Assembly (NCBI GenBank): GCA_035249885.1
Contig: DATFFV010000103.1
Span: 1 to 34,013, forward strand
Reading direction: 5' to 3'
Source of the DNA: Gammaproteobacteria bacterium
GTDB taxonomy: Bacteria; Pseudomonadota; Gammaproteobacteria; Steroidobacterales; Rariloculaceae
DNA length: 34,013 nt
Made by a program: the position numbers and the translations under genes. The notes under the pieces were generated by a model. That model was given only the letters and a program-made list of their open reading frames with translations, was not told where the DNA came from and searched no databases. Each line of letters begins with the position of its first letter. Positions within the stretch are counted from its first letter, which is position 1. Below, piece by piece: positions 7,239-14,334 of the stretch.

Positions 7239-7310
7239 CGGTCCGCCCGGTCCTACCGATTGCCGATCTCGCGTCGGCCGGCCGCGTCCGCGGCGTGGGA
7301 CGGCGGACCG
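7239..7310 (+). terminator. Long-range GC stem immediately after the OMP stop (terminator or tupB leader structure)
   Basis: CGGTCCGCC (7239..7247) is the exact reverse complement of GGCGGACCG (7302..7310). An inner GTCC/GGAC pairing extends the stem. No T-tract follows, so it is not a canonical intrinsic terminator. Confidence 0.3.
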
Positions 7311-7328
7311 TACTGGTATCGTACGCGA

Positions 7329-8033
7329 ATGGGTGACATTGGATCGGCGTTCGCCGAGGCCGCTCGTTTGATCGTCGCGGCCGACAGAACACTGTACGGC
7401 ATCGTCCTACTGAGCCTCGAAGTGGGACTCACCGCGGTCGCTGCAGCGACCGCCATCTGCCTGCCGCTTGGCGCCGCGCTTGCGATCCGTCGTTTTCCGG
7501 GACGGCAAGTGTTGCTCGTGACCTTGAATGCGCTCATGGGCCTTCCACCCGTCGTCGTCGGGTTGCTGGTATACCTGTTGCTGTCGCGAGCGGGCCCGCT
7601 CGGCGAGCTCGGGCTTCTGTTCACGCCTTTGGCGATGGTCATCGCTCAGGCGATACTCGTGACGCCGATCATCGCCGGGCTGTCGCGCCAGGTGCTCGAG
7701 GATGCTTGGCACGAATACGAAGAACAGTTGCGCTCGCTCGGCGCGACAGCTTCGACTGCAGCGGCAACCCTGGTTTGGGACACGCGCTATTCGCTCGTCA
7801 CGGTCGTGTTGGCAGGATTCGGCCGCGCGGCCGCCGAAGTCGGCGCTGTCATGATCGTTGGCGGCAACATCGACGGCGTGACTCGTGTGATGACGACGGC
7901 GATCTCGCTCGAAACGAGCAAGGGCGACCTGCCCCTCGCTTTGGGGCTCGGCATAATCCTCGTCGCCGTGGTGTTCGTCATCAATGCGGCGGCGCAGGTC
8001 ATCAAGTCGGGGGCAATCCGCCGCTATGGATAG
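7329..8033 (+). CDS. tupB: ABC transporter permease, tungstate TupB-like
   Basis: Hydrophobic permease with about 5-6 TM segments, sitting in an operon with the ATPase and a TupA-like binding protein. Start taken at ATG 7329 (MGDIGSAF...). The ORF-track TTG at 7260 adds a non-hydrophobic Arg/Pro leader. Confidence 0.75.
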   Translation: MGDIGSAFAEAARLIVAADRTLYGIVLLSLEVGLTAVAAATAICLPLGAALAIRRFPGRQVLLVTLNALMGLPPVVVGLLVYLLLSRAGPLGELGLLFTPLAMVIAQAILVTPIIAGLSRQVLEDAWHEYEEQLRSLGATASTAAATLVWDTRYSLVTVVLAGFGRAAAEVGAVMIVGGNIDGVTRVMTTAISLETSKGDLPLALGLGIILVAVVFVINAAAQVIKSGAIRRYG

Positions 8034-8039
8034 ACCGCC

Positions 8040-8750
8040 GTGCTCCCGCTAATCCTCGAGGACGTCTCTTTCATAGTCGGCGGGCGCGCGATCATCGACC
8101 GCGTGTCGTGCGAGTTCACGCCGGGACCGCGAACGGTGATCCTAGGTCCGAACGGCTCGGGCAAGAGCGTGCTGATGCGCTTGTGCCACGGTCTCCTGAC
8201 GCCGACGTCGGGGCGCATGGCCTGGCGCGGCAGCCGCGATGAACGCCGGCCGCGCGCTCAAGCGATGGTGTTTCAGAGGCCCGTGATGCTGCGTCGCGCG
8301 GCTCTTCACAACGTGACCTACGGGCTCAAGCTCGCCGGAGTGCCGCGAGGCGAGCGTGACCGGCGCGCGCGCGAGGTTCTCGACGCCGTTGGGCTCACCC
8401 TAGCCGCGAAACATCCCGCACGCGTGCTGTCGGGCGGCGAGCAGCAGAAGCTCGCACTCGCGCGTGCGTGGGCGCTCACGCCCGAGGTGCTGTTCCTCGA
8501 CGAGCCCACGGCGAACCTCGATCCCGGCGCCTCGCGCGAGGTCGAGCGTATCGTCGAGCAGATCCACGCGAGCGGGACCAAGATCGTGATGACGACGCAT
8601 AATCTCGGCCAGGCCCGTCGACTCGCCGACGAAATCCTGTTCATCAGCGGCGGTCGCCTAACGGATCACGCGCCGGTGGAGCGCTTCTTCGCCCAGCCGT
8701 CGACGGCGGAAGCTGCCGCGTTCATCAAGGGAGAACTGCCATGGAGTTGA
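8040..8750 (+). CDS. tupC: ABC transporter ATP-binding protein, TupC-like
   Basis: Walker A GPNGSGKS, ABC signature LSGGEQQK, Walker B LFLDEP, H-loop TTHN. GTG start at 8040, 6 nt after the tupB stop. Confidence 0.85.
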   Translation: MLPLILEDVSFIVGGRAIIDRVSCEFTPGPRTVILGPNGSGKSVLMRLCHGLLTPTSGRMAWRGSRDERRPRAQAMVFQRPVMLRRAALHNVTYGLKLAGVPRGERDRRAREVLDAVGLTLAAKHPARVLSGGEQQKLALARAWALTPEVLFLDEPTANLDPGASREVERIVEQIHASGTKIVMTTHNLGQARRLADEILFISGGRLTDHAPVERFFAQPSTAEAAAFIKGELPWS

Positions 8751-9574
8751 GGACGGCCTGCGCGCGAATCGCTGTTTTGCTTGTCGCGCTGGCCTGCACG
8801 CCGAGCGCACTCGCGCAACGGTTCATCACGGTCGCATCGACCACGTCGACCGAGCAGTCGGGGCTGTTCAAGCATTTGCTGCCGATCTTCGAGCAAGAGA
8901 CCGGCATCGAGGTGCGCGTCGTGGCACTCGGCACGGGCCAGGCGCTCGACCTCGCGCGCCGCGGCGATGCCGACGTCGTGTTCGTGCACGCGAAGTCGGC
9001 TGAGGAAGAATTCCTGCGCGAGGGCCACGGCGTGCGCCGCTACCCGGTCATGTACAACGACTTCGTCATCGTTGGACCGAGAGCGGACCCGGCGGGAATC
9101 GTGGGCGGAGTCGACACGCTCGACGCGTTCCGCAAGATCAAGGAGGCTGGTGCATCGTTCGTCTCGCGCGGCGACCGCAGCGGCACGCACATCGCCGAGG
9201 TCAACTTCTGGACCATGGCGGGCGTCGATATCGCCATGGAAAAAGGCCCGTGGTATCGCGAGACCGGCCAAGGCATGGGCCCCGCGCTGAACACCGCCTC
9301 ATCGATGAACGCGTATCTCTTGGCCGATCGGGCAACGTGGCTCGCGTTCCGGAATCGCGGCGAGCTCGCGATCCTCGTCGAAGGCGATAAGCGCCTCATG
9401 AACCAGTACGGCGTCATGCTCGTGAATCCTGAAAGACATCCCAGCGTGAAACGCACCGAGGGCCAAGCCTTCATCGATTGGCTCGTTTCGCCGGAAGGAC
9501 AGGCAGCGATTGCCGAATACAAGATAGAAGGCGAGCAGCTGTTCTTTCCGAACGCGGGCGAGCTGGGAGCCTAA
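8741..9574 (+). CDS. tupA: Periplasmic tungstate-binding protein, TupA-like
   Basis: Signal peptide (ARIAVLLVALACTPSALA). It has the anion-binding TTSTEQSGL motif characteristic of TupA-type binding proteins, plus VHA...MYNDFVIVGP..DPAGI. The start overlaps the tupC stop by 10 nt. Confidence 0.8.
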   Translation: MELRTACARIAVLLVALACTPSALAQRFITVASTTSTEQSGLFKHLLPIFEQETGIEVRVVALGTGQALDLARRGDADVVFVHAKSAEEEFLREGHGVRRYPVMYNDFVIVGPRADPAGIVGGVDTLDAFRKIKEAGASFVSRGDRSGTHIAEVNFWTMAGVDIAMEKGPWYRETGQGMGPALNTASSMNAYLLADRATWLAFRNRGELAILVEGDKRLMNQYGVMLVNPERHPSVKRTEGQAFIDWLVSPEGQAAIAEYKIEGEQLFFPNAGELGA

Positions 9575-9756
9575 ACTGGATCGGCGCGCGGAGCTGCCGA
9601 TTCGGCGAGTCTCGGGCGATGGCGTCGCTAGCACAATCCTCACGGCTTCTTGCGCGCCGGCGTGGCCAACGCAAGCAACCTTCGGCCGTCGAACGCCCTG
9701 CTGGCTCGACCATATTCGTCCAGCACCTTTTTCCCTTCCATCTTCCACGAGACCTG

Positions 9757-10287
9757 CTACGTCAATGACTGCCTCTCGAGATCCAACCGGTGCTCGATGG
9801 TCGCTGTAGCGCGCTTACCGTTGTGAACGAAGCTGTGGCGAGTTACTCGTTTGAAAGGCCGCGGGCCTGTGAACGCGATTGCGTTGAGTACGTCGAGCAC
9901 TAAGCATCCGTCGGGCGCGACGTGCGTGCGGAAGTTGCGCAGACAAGCCCGAATCTCTGTGTTGGTGCGGTTATACGAGAGCGTCGTGCCAAGACAAAGG
10001 AGCATGTCGAATCGGCGCCGAACTCGAAACGACTTCATGTCTCCGACGACATATTGGCCACTCGGGTCTTTTGACCGCGCCGCTGCAACGAACTTCGAAT
10101 TGGCATCGACGCCGACGGGATACGCGCCACTTCGACGCAGCAAGCGGCACAAGGACCCGGTCGCACAACCGACGTCCAGTATGTGCGGCCCGAAACGCCG
10201 CGCGAGGCGCCTGATGAATCGAGCTCGCGCGGGCGGCTCCGCGAAAACCGTATCCCACAGGTGGGGATCGTCTGAAAGGAGGGTCAC
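9757..10287 (-). CDS. Class I SAM-dependent methyltransferase, TylM1/DesVI-like (possibly C-terminally truncated)
   Basis: SAM motif I ILDVGCATG. The segment GDMKSFRVRRRFDMLLCLGTTLSYN resembles the GDMRDF..RRF....C.FSS segment of sugar N,N-dimethyltransferases. The GTG start at 10285..10287 overlaps the upstream stop (GTGA). It ends at TAG 9757..9759, shorter than typical family members. Confidence 0.7.
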   Translation of the reverse strand: MTLLSDDPHLWDTVFAEPPARARFIRRLARRFGPHILDVGCATGSLCRLLRRSGAYPVGVDANSKFVAAARSKDPSGQYVVGDMKSFRVRRRFDMLLCLGTTLSYNRTNTEIRACLRNFRTHVAPDGCLVLDVLNAIAFTGPRPFKRVTRHSFVHNGKRATATIEHRLDLERQSLT

Positions 10288-11291
10288 GACGCGGCGTCCG
10301 GCGCGGGGAGAACGCTCGCAATCGACCAATCCGCAAAGCCGCTCCCAAAGACGGTGACGGGAATGGTGAGAAGGGAATGCTCGACGAGCAACGCCTGCGC
10401 ACTGCACTGCATCGCCACGAAATAGCCGCCCGCTGCCGGCAGCGTGGAGATCCGGGTATCCCGCGCGCGCGCCATGAGCTCCCGACGTCTCGTCGACATG
10501 TCGCGCAGCAGCCGCTGCGGAAACTGCCTGTATTTGGTGAGAAGCTCGTGCGCGAGTGCCAGCTTGGGCTTGGCAGGAGCCAAACTCCGAAAGGTGGCGG
10601 AGTACGTTGCAAGATCTCTGCGCGGTACCAATGCGACGCCAAATACGCGCTCGTGAAGCCAGCCCTTGGAGAGGGAGTCGAGCAACAACACCTGATCCGT
10701 GGCCAGCAGACGGTTCGTCCCAGAATCCAGGGGCGCCCCGAAGCCATAGACGCCATCAAGAATGATCCGCCGTGCTGGGTCGTCGCGCAGCCAGTCGCGG
10801 GCCGCGGCGACTTCTAGCTCGGTCCATGATCGACCGTGCAGCTTGAGTGGTTGCGGAAGCAGCACCACGAGCGCGCTCGCTTGAGCGGCCGTCCTCAAGA
10901 CCTCGGCGACCTCGAACTGGGGAAACGTCGCAAACCCAACCGGCCGCAAGCGGGCCTGTGAAGCAAGGCGCCAATAGACCGGGTAGACGTCCGTCGGAAC
11001 GGCGACACCCGCGCCTCTCCGAGCAAGCGACTCGAAGATGATTTCGAGCGCCTGGCGAACGCCTTCGCAGACTAGCGCCGTCGGCGACAGGCTTGGATCG
11101 ACCCCGTACGTCTCGCACCAGAGTCGAGCCAAGTCACAGCGATGGACGTCTGGAGCGTTCGCCGCAAGCTCCGGCATGGGCCTGATCGCGGAGTAGGCAA
11201 CCGAGATTCGTGTTTCGCAGAAGCAAGACGCGTTCGGCACTTCGACGCGCGACGTCTGGCTCCACCGCAAGAATTCGCCGAAATCCATCAT
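10284..11291 (-). CDS. PLP-dependent aminotransferase, fold-type I (class I/II-like)
   Basis: LDSLSKGW...RVFG matches the SxSK PLP-lysine motif context. ALVCEGVRQALEIIFESLARRGAGVAVPTDVYPVY matches the small-domain/large-domain junction pattern. The start lies 6 nt downstream of the rSAM stop. Confidence 0.65.
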   Translation of the reverse strand: MMDFGEFLRWSQTSRVEVPNASCFCETRISVAYSAIRPMPELAANAPDVHRCDLARLWCETYGVDPSLSPTALVCEGVRQALEIIFESLARRGAGVAVPTDVYPVYWRLASQARLRPVGFATFPQFEVAEVLRTAAQASALVVLLPQPLKLHGRSWTELEVAAARDWLRDDPARRIILDGVYGFGAPLDSGTNRLLATDQVLLLDSLSKGWLHERVFGVALVPRRDLATYSATFRSLAPAKPKLALAHELLTKYRQFPQRLLRDMSTRRRELMARARDTRISTLPAAGGYFVAMQCSAQALLVEHSLLTIPVTVFGSGFADWSIASVLPAPDAAS

Positions 11292-11297
11292 GCGGCT

Positions 11298-12641
11298 CTA
11301 GTGATCGCAGGCTGCGGAGCAAAGCTCGAGCTTGCTCCGGCGGTCCTCGAGCGAAGCGAGACAAGCGCCGTCGGACATGACGTTCCAGCTTCGCGCTATT
11401 CCGGTGGATCGCTCCCAAAAGAGGCTCGGCTCGGTATAGGCGGCCACTCGAATGCATCGGCCTCCCGTTACGCCCCTGAAAATGGGCGCGCCCCACGGCA
11501 GCCGATCAACCACCTCGAATCCGCAATGCCCTGCCCAATCGGCAACGATCGACAACGAAACTTGGTTCTTTGCGCTCCAGGCATTCGTGCTACGCGAATG
11601 GTAGACCGACTCCTCGCTCGTGGAGACGTAGAGCTCTTTGAAGCACACGTCATCGACGCCCAACGACGCCGCCCAACCAACGTAGTTTTGGATGTCGCCG
11701 ACCGACTCCACTCCTCCCCGCTGGAGCACGCATATCAACCGCAGCCTCATCCCACTCAGGCGATCTCGATTGGCCGCGCACAGCTGCATCAACGCGGGTG
11801 TTTCGGTCTCGAGGTTCATGAGCTTCGCGTTGATGGCCTCCTCGTGATGATGACGAGACACCGCGAGCACGGACAACCCGGCCTCGCACAGTTCGCCGAG
11901 CTGTGTGGCGGCTGCAGCGGCCGGCGCCGACGCGAAGCGAACTCCGTTCGTGATGAGCACAACCTTGTCGAAATCTTTGTTGCAGGCATTCACGAGCTCC
12001 AAGAGCCGGGCGTGAGGAAGCAACGTAGGCTCGCCGCCGCCGGTAATGACGGCGCGCTCGGCCCCGCGACGCCGGGCGAGGTCGATCCAGGCCCGCGCGC
12101 CCTTCATTTCGAATCGTCCCTGCTCTTGATCCGTGGAAACCGAGGCCTCCGAAAAACAAAAAGGGCACGCCGCCTGGCATCCGCGTGCGATCGGCAAGAA
12201 CGAAAGCGATCGCGGTCGAAGATCGGCATAGGCGGCAAACGAGCTCGCATGTAGCTCCAGGGACCTCGCCATCGCCTCTTCGAGGCCCAATGCCGACCCG
12301 AGCTTGCCCAGTGGGTCCACGCGGAACACGCCGGCGATCGGCAGGTCGGGCGACGGCCACAGCAGTCCGATTCCGGTTCGCGGGTTGGGGACAACGCTGG
12401 CGCGGGAAACGGACGTCTGCAGCACGAGCAACTCGTCACCCGGGATACGCAACTTGTCGCGGAGCTTGGAAGCCTTCGCGACTCCAACTGCGAGGTCCGG
12501 CGCGGTCAAAAGATACGATTCGTTCGGGTATCGGCTCTCCGGGATGCCGCCTTTACGGTATCGCCGGGTGTACTTGTCGAAGCCCCGTGCGAAGTTCGAC
12601 AGGGACGTTACGTGATAGAGCGGTTCCGACGCGGTCGTCAT
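11298..12641 (-). CDS. Radical SAM enzyme with an unassigned ~150-aa N-terminal domain
   Basis: The CxxxCxxC cluster CQAACPFC is at residues 155-162. A GGGEPTL SAM-binding (GGE) motif is present, and there are extra Cys near the C-terminus (...CLASLEDRRSKLELCSAACDH). An AAGGGGA SD lies about 9 nt upstream of ATG 12639..12641. Confidence 0.85.
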   Translation of the reverse strand: MTTASEPLYHVTSLSNFARGFDKYTRRYRKGGIPESRYPNESYLLTAPDLAVGVAKASKLRDKLRIPGDELLVLQTSVSRASVVPNPRTGIGLLWPSPDLPIAGVFRVDPLGKLGSALGLEEAMARSLELHASSFAAYADLRPRSLSFLPIARGCQAACPFCFSEASVSTDQEQGRFEMKGARAWIDLARRRGAERAVITGGGEPTLLPHARLLELVNACNKDFDKVVLITNGVRFASAPAAAAATQLGELCEAGLSVLAVSRHHHEEAINAKLMNLETETPALMQLCAANRDRLSGMRLRLICVLQRGGVESVGDIQNYVGWAASLGVDDVCFKELYVSTSEESVYHSRSTNAWSAKNQVSLSIVADWAGHCGFEVVDRLPWGAPIFRGVTGGRCIRVAAYTEPSLFWERSTGIARSWNVMSDGACLASLEDRRSKLELCSAACDH

Positions 12642-12669
12642 AGAGCGCTATCCCCTTCGCCTCAGGTCG

Positions 12670-12717
12670 CCACTAAGTGGGTTGCACCCACTAAGTAATT
12701 GGCATAGTCCCACTAAC
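12670..12717. repeat. Three direct copies of CCACTAA(G/C) spaced ~19-21 bp
   Basis: CCACTAAG at 12670..12677, CCCACTAAGT at 12688..12697, CCCACTAAC at 12709..12717. The first two contribute the arms of the palindrome. Confidence 0.5.
12676..12692. promoter_or_regulatory. Perfect 7-3-7 palindrome AGTGGGT-TGC-ACCCACT (candidate operator of the NrtR-like regulator)
   Basis: Read directly from the sequence. It lies in the 92-bp divergent intergenic region between the rSAM operon and the regulator gene. Confidence 0.45.
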
Positions 12718-12732
12718 GAGCTAGCATGTCAA
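12704..12732 (-). promoter_or_regulatory. Candidate sigma70 promoter for the rSAM operon (TTGACA-N17-GACTAT on the minus strand)
   Basis: The minus strand reads a perfect -35 TTGACA (12727..12732), a 17-nt spacer, then a weak -10 GACTAT (12704..12709). The predicted TSS would sit just upstream of the palindrome, so a bound repressor would block it. Confidence 0.35.
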
Positions 12733-12733
12733 T

Positions 12734-13492
12734 ATGAAAGCCACCACACCTCGCAAGTCCGGCGACAAACAAGCCCGGGAGCCTCTCGACTTCGAGCGCC
12801 CCCTGAGCACCGTCGATGTCGTCATCTTCGCTGTTCGGGGCTCGGCCCTCCAGGTGCTCCTGGTGCGTCGTCCATCCGACGTAAGCGACCCATATCCCGG
12901 GCTCTGGGCGCTCCCCGGCGGCTTTGTCGACATTGCGCGTGACCGTGACCTCGAAGCATGCGCGTTGCGGAAGCTGCGTGAGAAAACCGGGGTCGACGCG
13001 CCCTACCTTGAGCAACTTGGGAGCTGGGGTGATTCCGCGCGCGATCCGCGCGGGTGGTCTGCGACGCACGTTTACTTTTCGTTGGTCGCGCCCGACGCCG
13101 TCGGCCTAACGGCGGGAGGAAACGCCACGGACACGCGTTGGTTCACAATTGAGGGTGATCTAGTCGAGGAGACGCTGGCCTTTGACCATGCGTCGCTGCT
13201 CAAAGCCGCTGTGAGCCGGCTGCGTTCCAAGGTCGAATACACCTCGCTGCCCGCGTTTCTGCTGCCTCAGGAATTTACGCTCACTGAGTTGCAGCGGACC
13301 TACGAAGCCATTCTGGACAGAACCCTGGAGAAGAAGGCGTTTCGCACGCGGCTCCTGACCGCCGATGTGCTCTATCCCGTACCCCGAAGGAAGGGCGGCG
13401 CGAACCGCCCTGCCCAGTTGTATCGACTCAGACGTCGGCGGCAACCGCATCTCTTCGCAAGGCCCTTTGGCTCCGCCCCGGGCGTGAGTTAG
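12734..13492 (+). CDS. Nudix-related transcriptional regulator (NrtR-like: N-terminal Nudix fold + C-terminal winged helix)
   Basis: The Nudix-fold segment LPGGFVDIARDRDLEACALRKLREKTGV has a degenerate box: RKLREK replaces REUxEE. The C-terminus FTLTELQRTYEAILDRTLEKKAFRTRLL....GGANRPAQLYRL matches the NrtR wHTH pattern (F.L..LQ..YE.IL...L.K.NFR.K.......GRPA.LYRF). Confidence 0.8.
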   Translation: MKATTPRKSGDKQAREPLDFERPLSTVDVVIFAVRGSALQVLLVRRPSDVSDPYPGLWALPGGFVDIARDRDLEACALRKLREKTGVDAPYLEQLGSWGDSARDPRGWSATHVYFSLVAPDAVGLTAGGNATDTRWFTIEGDLVEETLAFDHASLLKAAVSRLRSKVEYTSLPAFLLPQEFTLTELQRTYEAILDRTLEKKAFRTRLLTADVLYPVPRRKGGANRPAQLYRLRRRRQPHLFARPFGSAPGVS

Positions 13493-13507
13493 TCACCGTT
13501 GGGCGAT

Positions 13508-13561
13508 CCCTCCGCGGAGGGGTTCTTGCACTCTATTGGTGCAAAATCCCTCACGTGAGGG
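13508..13561. terminator. Three consecutive hairpins between the convergent nrtR-like gene and mobA (candidate bidirectional terminator region)
   Basis: A perfect 14-bp palindrome CCCTCCGCGGAGGG sits at 13508..13521 and is followed by GTTCTT. TTGCAC-N7-GTGCAA sits at 13526..13544. A second perfect 14-bp palindrome CCCTCACGTGAGGG sits at 13548..13561. Confidence 0.35.
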
Positions 13562-13686
13562 GCCGACATCACCCGAAACCAACCAGCGGGTTAGTCCGCC
13601 AGTCCAATTGCAAATGCCAAAGCGATATTGAGTCGCGGAATGTCTTGTTCATCGCGTATCGAGCTGGGAGACCGCTTCGATCCACC

Positions 13687-14334
13687 TCATCGCTTCGAGC
13701 TCGCTGGACCGATCGAGACCGGCGACCGCCTTTGCCACGCGCCGGCGCACGCCGCCAGATCATCGCGCGTGTTGATGTTCGCGAACGCCTCGGGGCCTTC
13801 GAATAGCACTTTGCGCGCGCCCAGCCTCTCGAGCATTTGCCACGTCGGCGGGTGCGCGCCGTCGGCTAACGCTTCGCGAACCGCCGGCAGCGCCGTGACC
13901 GGCCACAATGCACAGAGCGGCTGACGACCGTCGCGGGTTTCGGCCATCGCGGCCGTGCCTTCGGCACGCTCCAGCAGGCGCACGTAGAGATCGTCCGGCA
14001 ACAGCGGCGCATCGCACGGGCTCACTGCGAGCGTGTGCGCGCCCTGCGCTTCGGCCCAGATGAGTCCCGCCTTCACGCCCGCGAGCGGTCCCAGGGCATC
14101 GCCCGCGGCGTCGTAAAGGGTCGGAAACCCCAGCGCTTTCGCCACGGCCTCTGCCTCGGTGCCCGCACGCACGTTGATGCCCACGTTTACGCACACGCTG
14201 CGCAGCCGCTCCGCCGCCCACTCGAGCAGCGGCCGGCCCTCGAGCAGCGCAACGGCTTTTTCGCCGCCGAAGCGAACGGAGCGACCGCCCGCCAGCACGA
14301 GGCCCACGACCGAAGGCGCGCTCACGCGGGCCAC
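13687..14334 (-). CDS. mobA: Molybdenum cofactor guanylyltransferase MobA
   Basis: N-terminal GLVLAGGRSVRFGGEKA and an LxGxPLL motif, with ...SPCDAPLL... and NINTRDDL near the C-terminus. GTG start at 14332..14334 (alternative GTG at 14325), overlapping the mobB stop. Confidence 0.85.
   Translation of the reverse strand: MARVSAPSVVGLVLAGGRSVRFGGEKAVALLEGRPLLEWAAERLRSVCVNVGINVRAGTEAEAVAKALGFPTLYDAAGDALGPLAGVKAGLIWAEAQGAHTLAVSPCDAPLLPDDLYVRLLERAEGTAAMAETRDGRQPLCALWPVTALPAVREALADGAHPPTWQMLERLGARKVLFEGPEAFANINTRDDLAACAGAWQRRSPVSIGPASSKR

Follow-up and report, generated by a model that had tools for sequence, protein, structure and literature searches.

The stretch of DNA analysed here, referred to as the window, comprises positions 1 to 34,013 of contig DATFFV010000103.1 (assembly GCA_035249885.1) of a Gammaproteobacteria bacterium of the Rariloculaceae. 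It contains a gene for an NrtR-family regulator of 252 amino acids (aa) (nrtR, 12734..13492, plus strand), which is divergent from an operon on the minus strand. This operon encodes a radical S-adenosylmethionine (SAM) enzyme (rSAM, 11298..12641), a fold-type I pyridoxal phosphate (PLP) enzyme resembling aminotransferases (AT, 10284..11291) and a class I SAM-dependent methyltransferase (MT, 9757..10288). The ATG codons of rSAM (12641) and nrtR (12734) are separated by a 92-bp spacer (12642-12733). This spacer holds two tandem 21-bp palindromes, which we name O1 and O2, and these overlap two predicted divergent promoters.

An earlier note on this DNA had described the regulator as an NrtR-like protein with a Nudix and a winged helix-turn-helix domain, divergent from the rSAM operon, and our searches agree with this. 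The protein matched Pfam PF00293 (NUDIX, 3.6e-16, aa 27-154) and PF21906 (NrtR_WHD, the NrtR winged-helix domain, 2.5e-20, aa 174-232), both above their gathering scores, so that it has the domain architecture of the NrtR family; the match to AraR_C, at 1.1e-5, was far weaker than that to NrtR_WHD. NrtR of Shewanella oneidensis (SoNrtR, 3GZ5) aligned over its full length (E=1e-46, query residues 16-243 onto chain residues 14-236), and more than 7000 homologues were found at E<=1e-20. The regulator scored 230.3 bits (E=2.3e-68) against the NCBIfam equivalog model NF050029 ('ADPR responsive transcriptional repressor'), whose curated cutoff of 400 was not reached; it belongs to the family of this model and lies outside its equivalog group.

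Intact Nudix hydrolases carry the signature GX5EX7REUXEEXGU. The regulator lacks this signature. By direct reading of the sequence, the core at residues 79-84 (12968..12985, plus strand) is RKLREK in place of REUxEE, two of the three core Glu residues being replaced by Lys, and the position of the upstream Glu is occupied by Arg69. These results are in agreement with the proposal that the domain is non-catalytic. The degenerate box is not, however, the special feature that it had been taken for. SoNrtR reads RKLAEK at the aligned columns, and most NrtR proteins have a degraded Nudix signature, the domain serving to bind ADP-ribose (PMC2330246). In addition, Lys76 of SoNrtR contacts the alpha-phosphate of ADP (PMC4666351), and the second Lys of the box in the regulator, K84, aligns with this residue. 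On these grounds the seemingly inactivated box is a ligand-binding adaptation typical of the NrtR family, and no peculiarity of this locus.

The spacer contains the exact palindrome AGTGGGT-TGC-ACCCACT at 12676-12692, the position at which it had been reported, and this is the sole match in the window when up to two mismatches are allowed. It extends to an imperfect palindrome of 25 bp (11+3+11 bp, 12672-12696) with 10 of 11 pairs. Three copies of CCACTAA are found in the whole window, all of them inside the spacer (12670, 12688 and 12710; spacing 18 and 22 bp); 0.74 copies would be expected by chance, and at least three copies anywhere occurred in 5 of 100 shuffles.

The organization of the spacer becomes clear when it is compared with that of relatives. 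A metagenome scan yielded 80 loci with regulators that are 58-82% identical to that of the window, and we compared their 65 unique upstream regions. The consensus of this clade, TTAGTGGG-nctgT-CCCACTAA G TAAGTGG-CACAGTA-CCACTAA, consists of two palindromes in tandem, with a spacer of 5 bp in O1 and of 7 bp in O2. In the window, O1 is TAAGTGGG-TTGCA-CCCACTAA (TAAGTGGGTTGCACCCACTAA, 12674..12694), located on the rSAM side, and O2 is TAATTGG-CATAGTC-CCACTAA (TAATTGGCATAGTCCCACTAA, 12696..12716). A single base lies between the two sites, and their centres are 22 bp apart. O1 includes the exact palindrome, but the T/A pair that gives the latter its 7+3+7 form falls in the O1 spacer, which varies across the family, whereas the conserved O1 arms are T(T/A)AGTGGG and CCCACTAA. 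The second and third copies of CCACTAA are the right half-sites of O1 and O2, respectively. The first copy (12670..12676, plus strand) overlaps the left arm of O1; its CCAC part is specific to the window, and relatives read cactagTAAGTGGG, cataagTAAGTGGG and similar sequences at this position, showing that the copy is not conserved. Thus, the three copies are present as the earlier note had stated, but instead of three direct repeats they are better read as parts of two tandem palindromes.

Several lines of evidence point to O1 and O2 as operators of the adjacent regulator. Position weight matrices (PWMs) for both sites were trained on the metagenome relatives alone, with the window excluded, and these recovered exactly O1 (26.3 bits) and O2 (34.7 bits) in the 34 kb, the next best site elsewhere scoring less than 2 bits. 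The architecture of the pair is kept in about 65 distinct relatives, and both sites have the 21-bp palindromic form of operators of the NrtR family. The half-sites vary between lineages from AGTGG to AGTTG, and when they do so both arms of both operators change together. The lineages with AGTTG have a recognition helix reading L(E/N/D)KSAFRTR instead of LEKKAFRTR, a change to Ser of the Lys that is Lys201 in the regulator of the window; GTTG half-sites accompany 18 of 21 proteins of the KS type and none of about 45 of the KK type, counts that are not phylogenetically independent. Symmetric changes of the arms that correlate with the recognition helix are the behaviour expected of a genuine operator for the adjacent regulator. 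Relatives that lack a divergent target gene (loci L052-56, L063 and L080) retain O2 alone, which fits the view that O2 is an autoregulatory or shared site and O1 the target-side site. An Rfam scan of positions 9500-13800 at E<=1 gave no match to a riboswitch or other RNA.

Both operators overlap predicted promoters. On the minus strand, direct reading gives a predicted promoter for the rSAM operon (12704..12732) composed of a -35 box TTGACA (12732..12727), a 17-bp spacer and a -10 box GACTAT (12709..12704), the candidate that the earlier note had pointed out, from which transcription would start near 12697. On the plus strand, a promoter scan predicted an nrtR promoter at 12699..12727 (-35 TTGGCA, N17, -10 TAGCAT; 9 of 12 matches). 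Relatives carry hexamers equivalent to these. The nrtR mRNA is probably leaderless, with a predicted start near 12734, because the ATG is located only 6 nt past this -10 box and the start codon (ATG or GTG) lies 6-7 nt past it in several relatives (L060, L132, L117, L135, L136 and L057). The sequence following the plus-strand -10 (TGTCAA/TGCAAC) and the centre of O2 (CACAGTA, or TACTGT on the minus strand; GACTAT in the window) are conserved in relatives, and they coincide with the minus-strand -35 and -10 boxes of the window. These conserved hexamer positions imply that the two divergent promoters overlap completely. The left arm of O2 overlaps the -35 box of nrtR and the centre of O2 is the -10 box of rSAM; O1 extends over the early part of the predicted rSAM transcript, from about +4 to +24. 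The palindrome and repeats thus belong to operators that overlap the promoters, with O1 over the predicted start of the rSAM transcript, as had been supposed.

This layout suggests the following mechanism. Two NrtR dimers would bind side by side on O1 and O2. Occupation of O2 would cover the -35 box and the spacer of the nrtR promoter together with the -10 box of the rSAM promoter, and O1 would be occupied just downstream of the presumed rSAM transcription start. Binding to both sites would repress nrtR itself and the rSAM-AT-MT operon (12641 to 9757). The inducer would most likely be ADP-ribose, a product of reactions that consume nicotinamide adenine dinucleotide (NAD), which would enter the Nudix pocket and cause release of the DNA. 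The rSAM operon would then be an accessory part, so far uncharacterised, of the NAD/ADP-ribose regulon and not a foreign pathway unrelated to NAD; the cassette would probably act on a nucleotide derived from NAD. We consider it probable that the regulator is a typical NrtR repressor with tandem operators which, judged by its sequence, would be induced by ADP-ribose and control an accessory operon of the NAD regulon. 21-bp palindromes, nrtR divergons and autoregulation are known for NrtR (PMC2330246; PMC6800001), and tandem sites are known for the NrtR-family regulator AraR (PMC4666351).

The genes controlled by relatives place the regulator in an NAD context. We surveyed the divergent partners of nrtR at 86 loci, namely the 80 loci of the scan and six found via close protein homologues. 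A gene for an SPFH/Band-7 protein, followed by a distant NAD-kinase homologue where the flank was long enough, was the partner at 51 loci; rSAM was the partner at nine, nadM at two and an ADP-ribosylglycohydrolase (ARH) gene at one. Another gene or none was found at 14 loci, and at nine the flank was too short to determine the partner. The SPFH and NAD-kinase calls are based on Pfam Band_7, PDB NAD kinase 2 and the NCBIfam NAD kinase models, and the ARH call on Pfam. The SPFH and NadK-like genes form an operon (for example L083:1913-3875, minus strand, and 50 further loci among L068-L139); the NadK-like protein, of about 310 aa, matched PDB 7r4j at 9e-6 and NCBIfam NAD kinase at 7e-5. The same operators face nadM(-nadV) at L105, L108 and L097 and the ARH gene at L075, and L097 has a single divergent operon SPFH-NadK-like-nadM-nadV. 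Our literature search found nothing that links NrtR with SPFH, nor anything on the SPFH and NAD-kinase-like pair. The occurrence of the same motif in front of nadM-nadV, ARH and SPFH/NAD-kinase-like operons shows that the regulator is a member of a generic NAD/ADP-ribose regulon clade, the alternative that the earlier note had itself considered. The association with NAD genes that characterizes the NrtR family is thus found through clade members and through the cassette; no NAD gene was found in the window.

The cassette itself also accompanies NAD genes. AT follows rSAM in 50 of 51 genome loci (Proteobacteria, Myxococcota, Actinomycetota and Planctomycetota), often with MT next. In Dyella (L017 and L033) and Ralstonia (L058) the gene order is nadM-nadV-rSAM-AT-MT, with an ARH gene afterwards in L017; here nadM encodes a nicotinamide mononucleotide (NMN) adenylyltransferase/Nudix protein and nadV a nicotinamide phosphoribosyltransferase. 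In Aquabacterium (L014) nadM precedes rSAM. A planctomycete locus (L022:2388-8309) has the order NrtR box-pncB-nrtR-pncA-tpt1/kptA (RNA 2'-phosphotransferase)-rSAM-AT, the box (TTAGTGTATTTTTAACACTAA, at 2404) being located at the start of pncB. In Roseateles chitinivorans (L140:7875-7934) tandem NrtR-type boxes of the AGTTG class, TGGGTTGTACTGTGCAACTTA and TGGGTTGTTCAGTGCAACTCA, are present 110 nt upstream of an rSAM-AT-MT cassette; as in the window, an operator covers the -10 box of a promoter, here TTGACA-N17-TACTGT. No nrtR gene was found within 8 kb of these boxes, which implies control in trans. A Kofleriaceae locus (L002) has a 21-mer with the canonical GT-N7-AC core, ATATTGTACATCGTACAATAT, 31 nt upstream of the rSAM start. 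When the regions preceding every rSAM gene were scanned for 21-bp palindromes with no fewer than 9 of 10 pairs, only this site and GC-rich chance matches emerged; the PWM was more informative. Since the cassette and the operators accompany NAD genes in other bacteria, the label 'non-NAD' that the earlier note had given to the cassette is unsupported.

At another metagenome locus that retains O1 and O2 intact (L057:3790-5911, a contig of a long-read metagenome-assembled genome), frameshifts break rSAM and AT up into at least three open reading frames (ORFs), either because the cassette is decaying or because of indel errors in the assembly. A 223-aa protein at this locus matches the rSAM N-terminus alone; we considered and rejected a shuffled N-terminal domain, as this is the same rSAM-AT cassette in frameshifted form.

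The cassette has more than 1000 homologues in Proteobacteria, Myxococcota, Actinomycetota, Planctomycetota and Verrucomicrobiota, none of which is characterised. The rSAM enzyme (447 aa; Pfam Radical_SAM) has an N-terminal domain of about 140 aa in addition to the core with its CX3CX2C motif, and its AlphaFold2 model has a pLDDT (predicted local distance difference test) score of 87.7. Of its homologues (n=1042), all 120 listed were named 'radical SAM protein' or were automatically named. The nearest solved folds in Foldseek were MoaA, viperin, viperin-like enzymes, BlsE and DesII, with 12-20% identity; all of these act on nucleotides or nucleoside-sugars. No family cutoff was reached among the curated models (viperin_w_prok, 32.9 against a cutoff of 180; MoaA models, 22-26 against cutoffs of 231-325), and the likeness of the modelled rSAM enzyme to viperin and MoaA is at the level of the fold only. 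AT (335 aa; a weak match to Pfam Aminotran_1_2) starts 6 nt after the rSAM stop codon. A 16-sequence profile matched generic class I/II aminotransferases (2.8e-9), and the invariant residues of AT comprise Lys209 of an SxSK motif, Asp179 and Tyr182. A metagenomic protein of 777 aa (P0222) is a natural rSAM-AT fusion with rSAM at its N-terminus, residues 455-777 being 43% identical to AT of the window. The probable GTG start codon of MT (Pfam Methyltransf_25, 4.9e-13) at 10288 overlaps the AT stop codon (GTGA), and the listed ORF extends to 10407.

A likeness of AT to SbzP, the PLP enzyme that links NAD with SAM during altemicidin biosynthesis, was considered and dropped, PDB searches with the single sequence and with the 16-sequence profile giving generic class I/II aminotransferases only; PsePQ, a homologue of SbzP, has been studied by cryo-EM as described in PMC13518217. 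A role for rSAM in molybdenum cofactor synthesis, suggested by its MoaA-like fold and by the flanking mobA, mobB, moeA, formate dehydrogenase and solute ABC transporter genes, was likewise rejected, as these flanks are conserved at no other locus.

Together, the fold likeness and the gene contexts point to modification of an NAD-derived nucleotide. The possibility that rSAM and the PLP enzyme, with or without MT, form an undescribed NAD/ADP-ribose branch that modifies an NAD-derived nucleotide such as NAD, ADP-ribose, NMN or a riboside, and that is induced by ADP-ribose via NrtR, is one that we put forward tentatively; it falls somewhat short of an even chance. Oxidation or dehydration of the ribose followed by transamination would be a chemically plausible route. 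Our literature search found no paper naming both NrtR and radical SAM.

Some observations weigh against the interpretation given above. The closest relative (L060, 77-79% identity), whose regulator likewise faces a divergent rSAM-AT-MT operon, keeps a good O2 but has lost O1, the position of which reads AAATTGAGTAGTCTCCAAAAA (L060:3915-4000); O1 is therefore not essential at every rSAM-linked locus. Comparison with the known NrtR consensus, which the earlier note had called for, showed no match to the GT-N7-AC core, both operators having GG-N7-CC at those positions. This core is common to most but not all NrtR groups, and several divergent motifs have been listed (PMC2330246), which makes it typical of NrtR and not defining. 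The score of the regulator against the NCBIfam NrtR equivalog is under the cutoff, as stated. The minus-strand -10 box GACTAT is weak, with three of six matches to TATAAT, and was missed by a stricter promoter scan. In addition, a PWM scan showed that most actinobacterial and myxobacterial copies of the cassette are without a recognisable NrtR box of the clade of the window. Finally, two SoNrtR contacts are not retained: Asn43 corresponds to Ser48 in the regulator, a position that varies within the clade, and the equivalent of Tyr10 is not alignable. The effector could thus be NAD acting as a co-repressor, or another derivative of ADP-ribose. The regulator itself is an ordinary NrtR protein with a lineage-specific operator.

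The nature of the ligand was approached through the contacts between SoNrtR and ADP-ribose. Four of the five alignable contacts are identical in the regulator, Phe15, Arg41, Lys76 and Arg98 of SoNrtR corresponding to F20, R46, K84 and R106. None of the four varies among 65 distinct clade members, whatever the target operon of the member, and neither does K80, the first Lys of the Nudix box. An ADP-ribose-type ligand, one of the two kinds that the earlier note had considered, is thus likely, whereas the identity and invariance of these contacts argue against the other, a nucleoside diphosphate (NDP) sugar.

A repressor of the NrtR family that uses NAD or another NAD derivative as co-repressor would switch the operon on when NAD falls and not when ADP-ribose rises. 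The altered Asn43 and Tyr10 positions leave room for such a ligand, an NAD-responsive member of the family exists according to a citation in PMC4666351 (NdnR of Corynebacterium), and the NAD salvage and NAD-kinase-like targets of the clade would suit a signal of NAD sufficiency equally well. The regulator is, however, much closer to the ADP-ribose-responsive SoNrtR, with which it aligns over its full length, and retains the phosphate and adenine contacts; sequence alone cannot separate the two ligands. We regard control by NAD as rather unlikely.

The proposal of the earlier note, that an NrtR-type sensor was co-opted by a biosynthetic cassette outside NAD metabolism and senses another ligand, such as an NDP-sugar made or used by the pathway, has some features of the locus on its side. 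Canonical NAD genes are absent from the surroundings of the regulator in the window, rSAM, the PLP enzyme and the methyltransferase look biosynthetic, the nearest folds of rSAM include the NDP-sugar or nucleoside-sugar enzymes DesII and BlsE, and relatives of NrtR have switched to sugars, as has AraR of Bacteroides thetaiotaomicron (PMC4666351). Yet in other phyla the cassette forms part of nadM-nadV and pncB-pncA operons, and clade members with the same pocket residues and operators control nadM-nadV and the ARH gene. The regulator, moreover, lacks the side chains that occupy the ADP pocket in AraR; because it retains the SoNrtR-type R46, K84, R106 and F20, it is not on the sugar-sensing AraR/XylR branch. 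Recruitment away from NAD metabolism is therefore improbable. It is least probable by far that the CCACTAA copies are iteron-like direct repeats for a protein other than NrtR, with the palindrome a separate element such as a transcript hairpin: the three copies are exact and the palindrome would fall in the 5' untranslated region of the rSAM mRNA, but the first copy is not conserved in relatives, each of the other two invariably has an inverted left arm at a fixed distance (N5 or N7), the arms change symmetrically and in step with the recognition helix of the regulator encoded next to them, and the region is without an Rfam match.

The four-gene nrtR-rSAM-AT-MT module differs from its surroundings. 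Its G+C content is about 0.62 (at about 9000-13500) versus 0.67-0.70 in the flanks. Its neighbours are genes for a solute ABC transporter (PBP_like_2 binding protein, permease and ATPase; 7260-9574) on one side and mobA-mobB-formate dehydrogenase-moeA on the other, and this neighbourhood was conserved at no other cassette locus compared. The lower G+C and the non-conserved flanks suggest that the module was inserted horizontally into a molybdenum-cofactor/formate dehydrogenase neighbourhood and that rSAM is not a molybdenum cofactor gene. A long GC-rich hairpin (13508-13561, CCCTCCGCGGAGGGG...CCCTCACGTGAGGG) is located between the convergent nrtR and mobA genes and is probably a bidirectional terminator; a 115-nt stretch gave -49.3 kcal/mol with z=-3.4. 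A simple terminator scan missed it, as it has no T run.

Further observations concern cassettes at other loci. In Streptomyces, Kitasatospora and Streptacidiphilus (L008-L049) a strongly conserved element, GTTC(A/G)TGCATGATGACGGGATGAAC, extends from about 30 nt before the rSAM start to across it. Both the ribosome-binding site and the start codon are overlapped by this element, which holds GTTCAT/ATGAAC arms and a 10-bp palindrome, TCATGCATGA, and does not match the operators of the NrtR clade of the window; it could be a site for an actinobacterial regulator or simply conserved N-terminal coding sequence. In Nitrospirillum (L141:6755-7740) a small Nudix protein without a winged helix-turn-helix is encoded upstream of, and divergent from, rSAM-AT-MT, and a sequence resembling a tRNA gene lies between the two (about 7680-7750). 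Plasmid records contain three more cassette loci, which are without annotation.

The regulator as such adds little that is new, and the value of the locus lies in the lead that it gives to the cassette. The tandem layout and the covariation of Lys/Ser with G/T provide a clean and testable recognition code for a very large NrtR clade of soil bacteria. More importantly, three independent genomic linkages connect the widespread but uncharacterised pair of rSAM and PLP enzymes with the salvage of NAD and the turnover of ADP-ribose, namely divergent nrtR with operators, inclusion in nadM-nadV or pncB-pncA operons, and NrtR boxes in trans. These linkages narrow the candidate substrates of an orphan radical SAM family to a short and concrete list, and suggest an unrecognised accessory reaction in bacterial NAD metabolism. 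The cassette itself appears to belong to the NAD/ADP-ribose regulon as an accessory member that is so far uncharacterised.

Much of the regulatory logic is already known: NrtR itself, 21-bp palindromes, divergons, autoregulation, ADP-ribose as effector and recruitment elsewhere (PMC2330246, PMC6800001, PMC4666351). The best match is SoNrtR (SO1979; 3GZ5/3GZ6/3GZ8), the ADP-ribose-responsive repressor of prs-nadV. It has the same two-domain architecture, a similarly degenerate Nudix core, the four shared ligand contacts and a 21-bp palindromic operator in the promoter. The window differs in having two tandem sites, T(T/A)AGTGGG-N5-CCCACTAA and TAAGTGG-N7-CCACTAA, without GT-N7-AC, in lacking conserved equivalents of Asn43 and Tyr10, and in its rSAM-PLP-MT target. 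NrtR of Mycobacterium smegmatis (MSMEG_3198) is an auto-repressor that has lost hydrolase activity and acts through one palindrome between nrtR and the divergent nadABC (PMC6800001); in contrast to O1 and O2, this is a single 23-bp site, GTTTTCGA-N7-TCGAAAAC, and the target is de novo NAD synthesis. The L-arabinose-responsive AraR of B. thetaiotaomicron (5BS6), which matched the regulator at 4.4e-21, also combines a Nudix domain with a winged helix-turn-helix and has tandem operators, and is a case of an NrtR protein controlling another pathway (PMC4666351). Its ADP pocket is filled by Tyr5, Phe36, Leu67 and Gly89, whereas the regulator of the window retains the SoNrtR-type Arg, Lys and Phe.

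The gene arrangement most similar to that of the window is the nrtR<#>nrtX-nrtY divergon, whose predicted targets, listed in Table 1 of PMC2330246 for Proteus, Hahella, Streptomyces, Frankia and Kineococcus, have no assigned function. Here too nrtR and a short, functionally unassigned operon diverge from a common spacer that holds an NrtR box, and in Hahella, as described in that paper, the nrtX-nrtY regulon also includes NAD salvage genes. The text of that study, by Rodionov et al. (2008), leaves the products of nrtX and nrtY unstated. None of the species that it names was among the 51 rSAM genome loci, and the SPFH/NadK-like pair is the commonest partner of nrtR in the clade (51 loci); for these reasons we lean, without proof, towards this pair over the rSAM/PLP pair as nrtX-nrtY. 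For the rSAM enzyme, the nearest known systems are MoaA and the viperin-like enzymes, with which it shares the partial TIM barrel with CX3CX2C motif. It differs from them in its extra N-terminal domain of about 140 aa and in always being partnered with a PLP enzyme.

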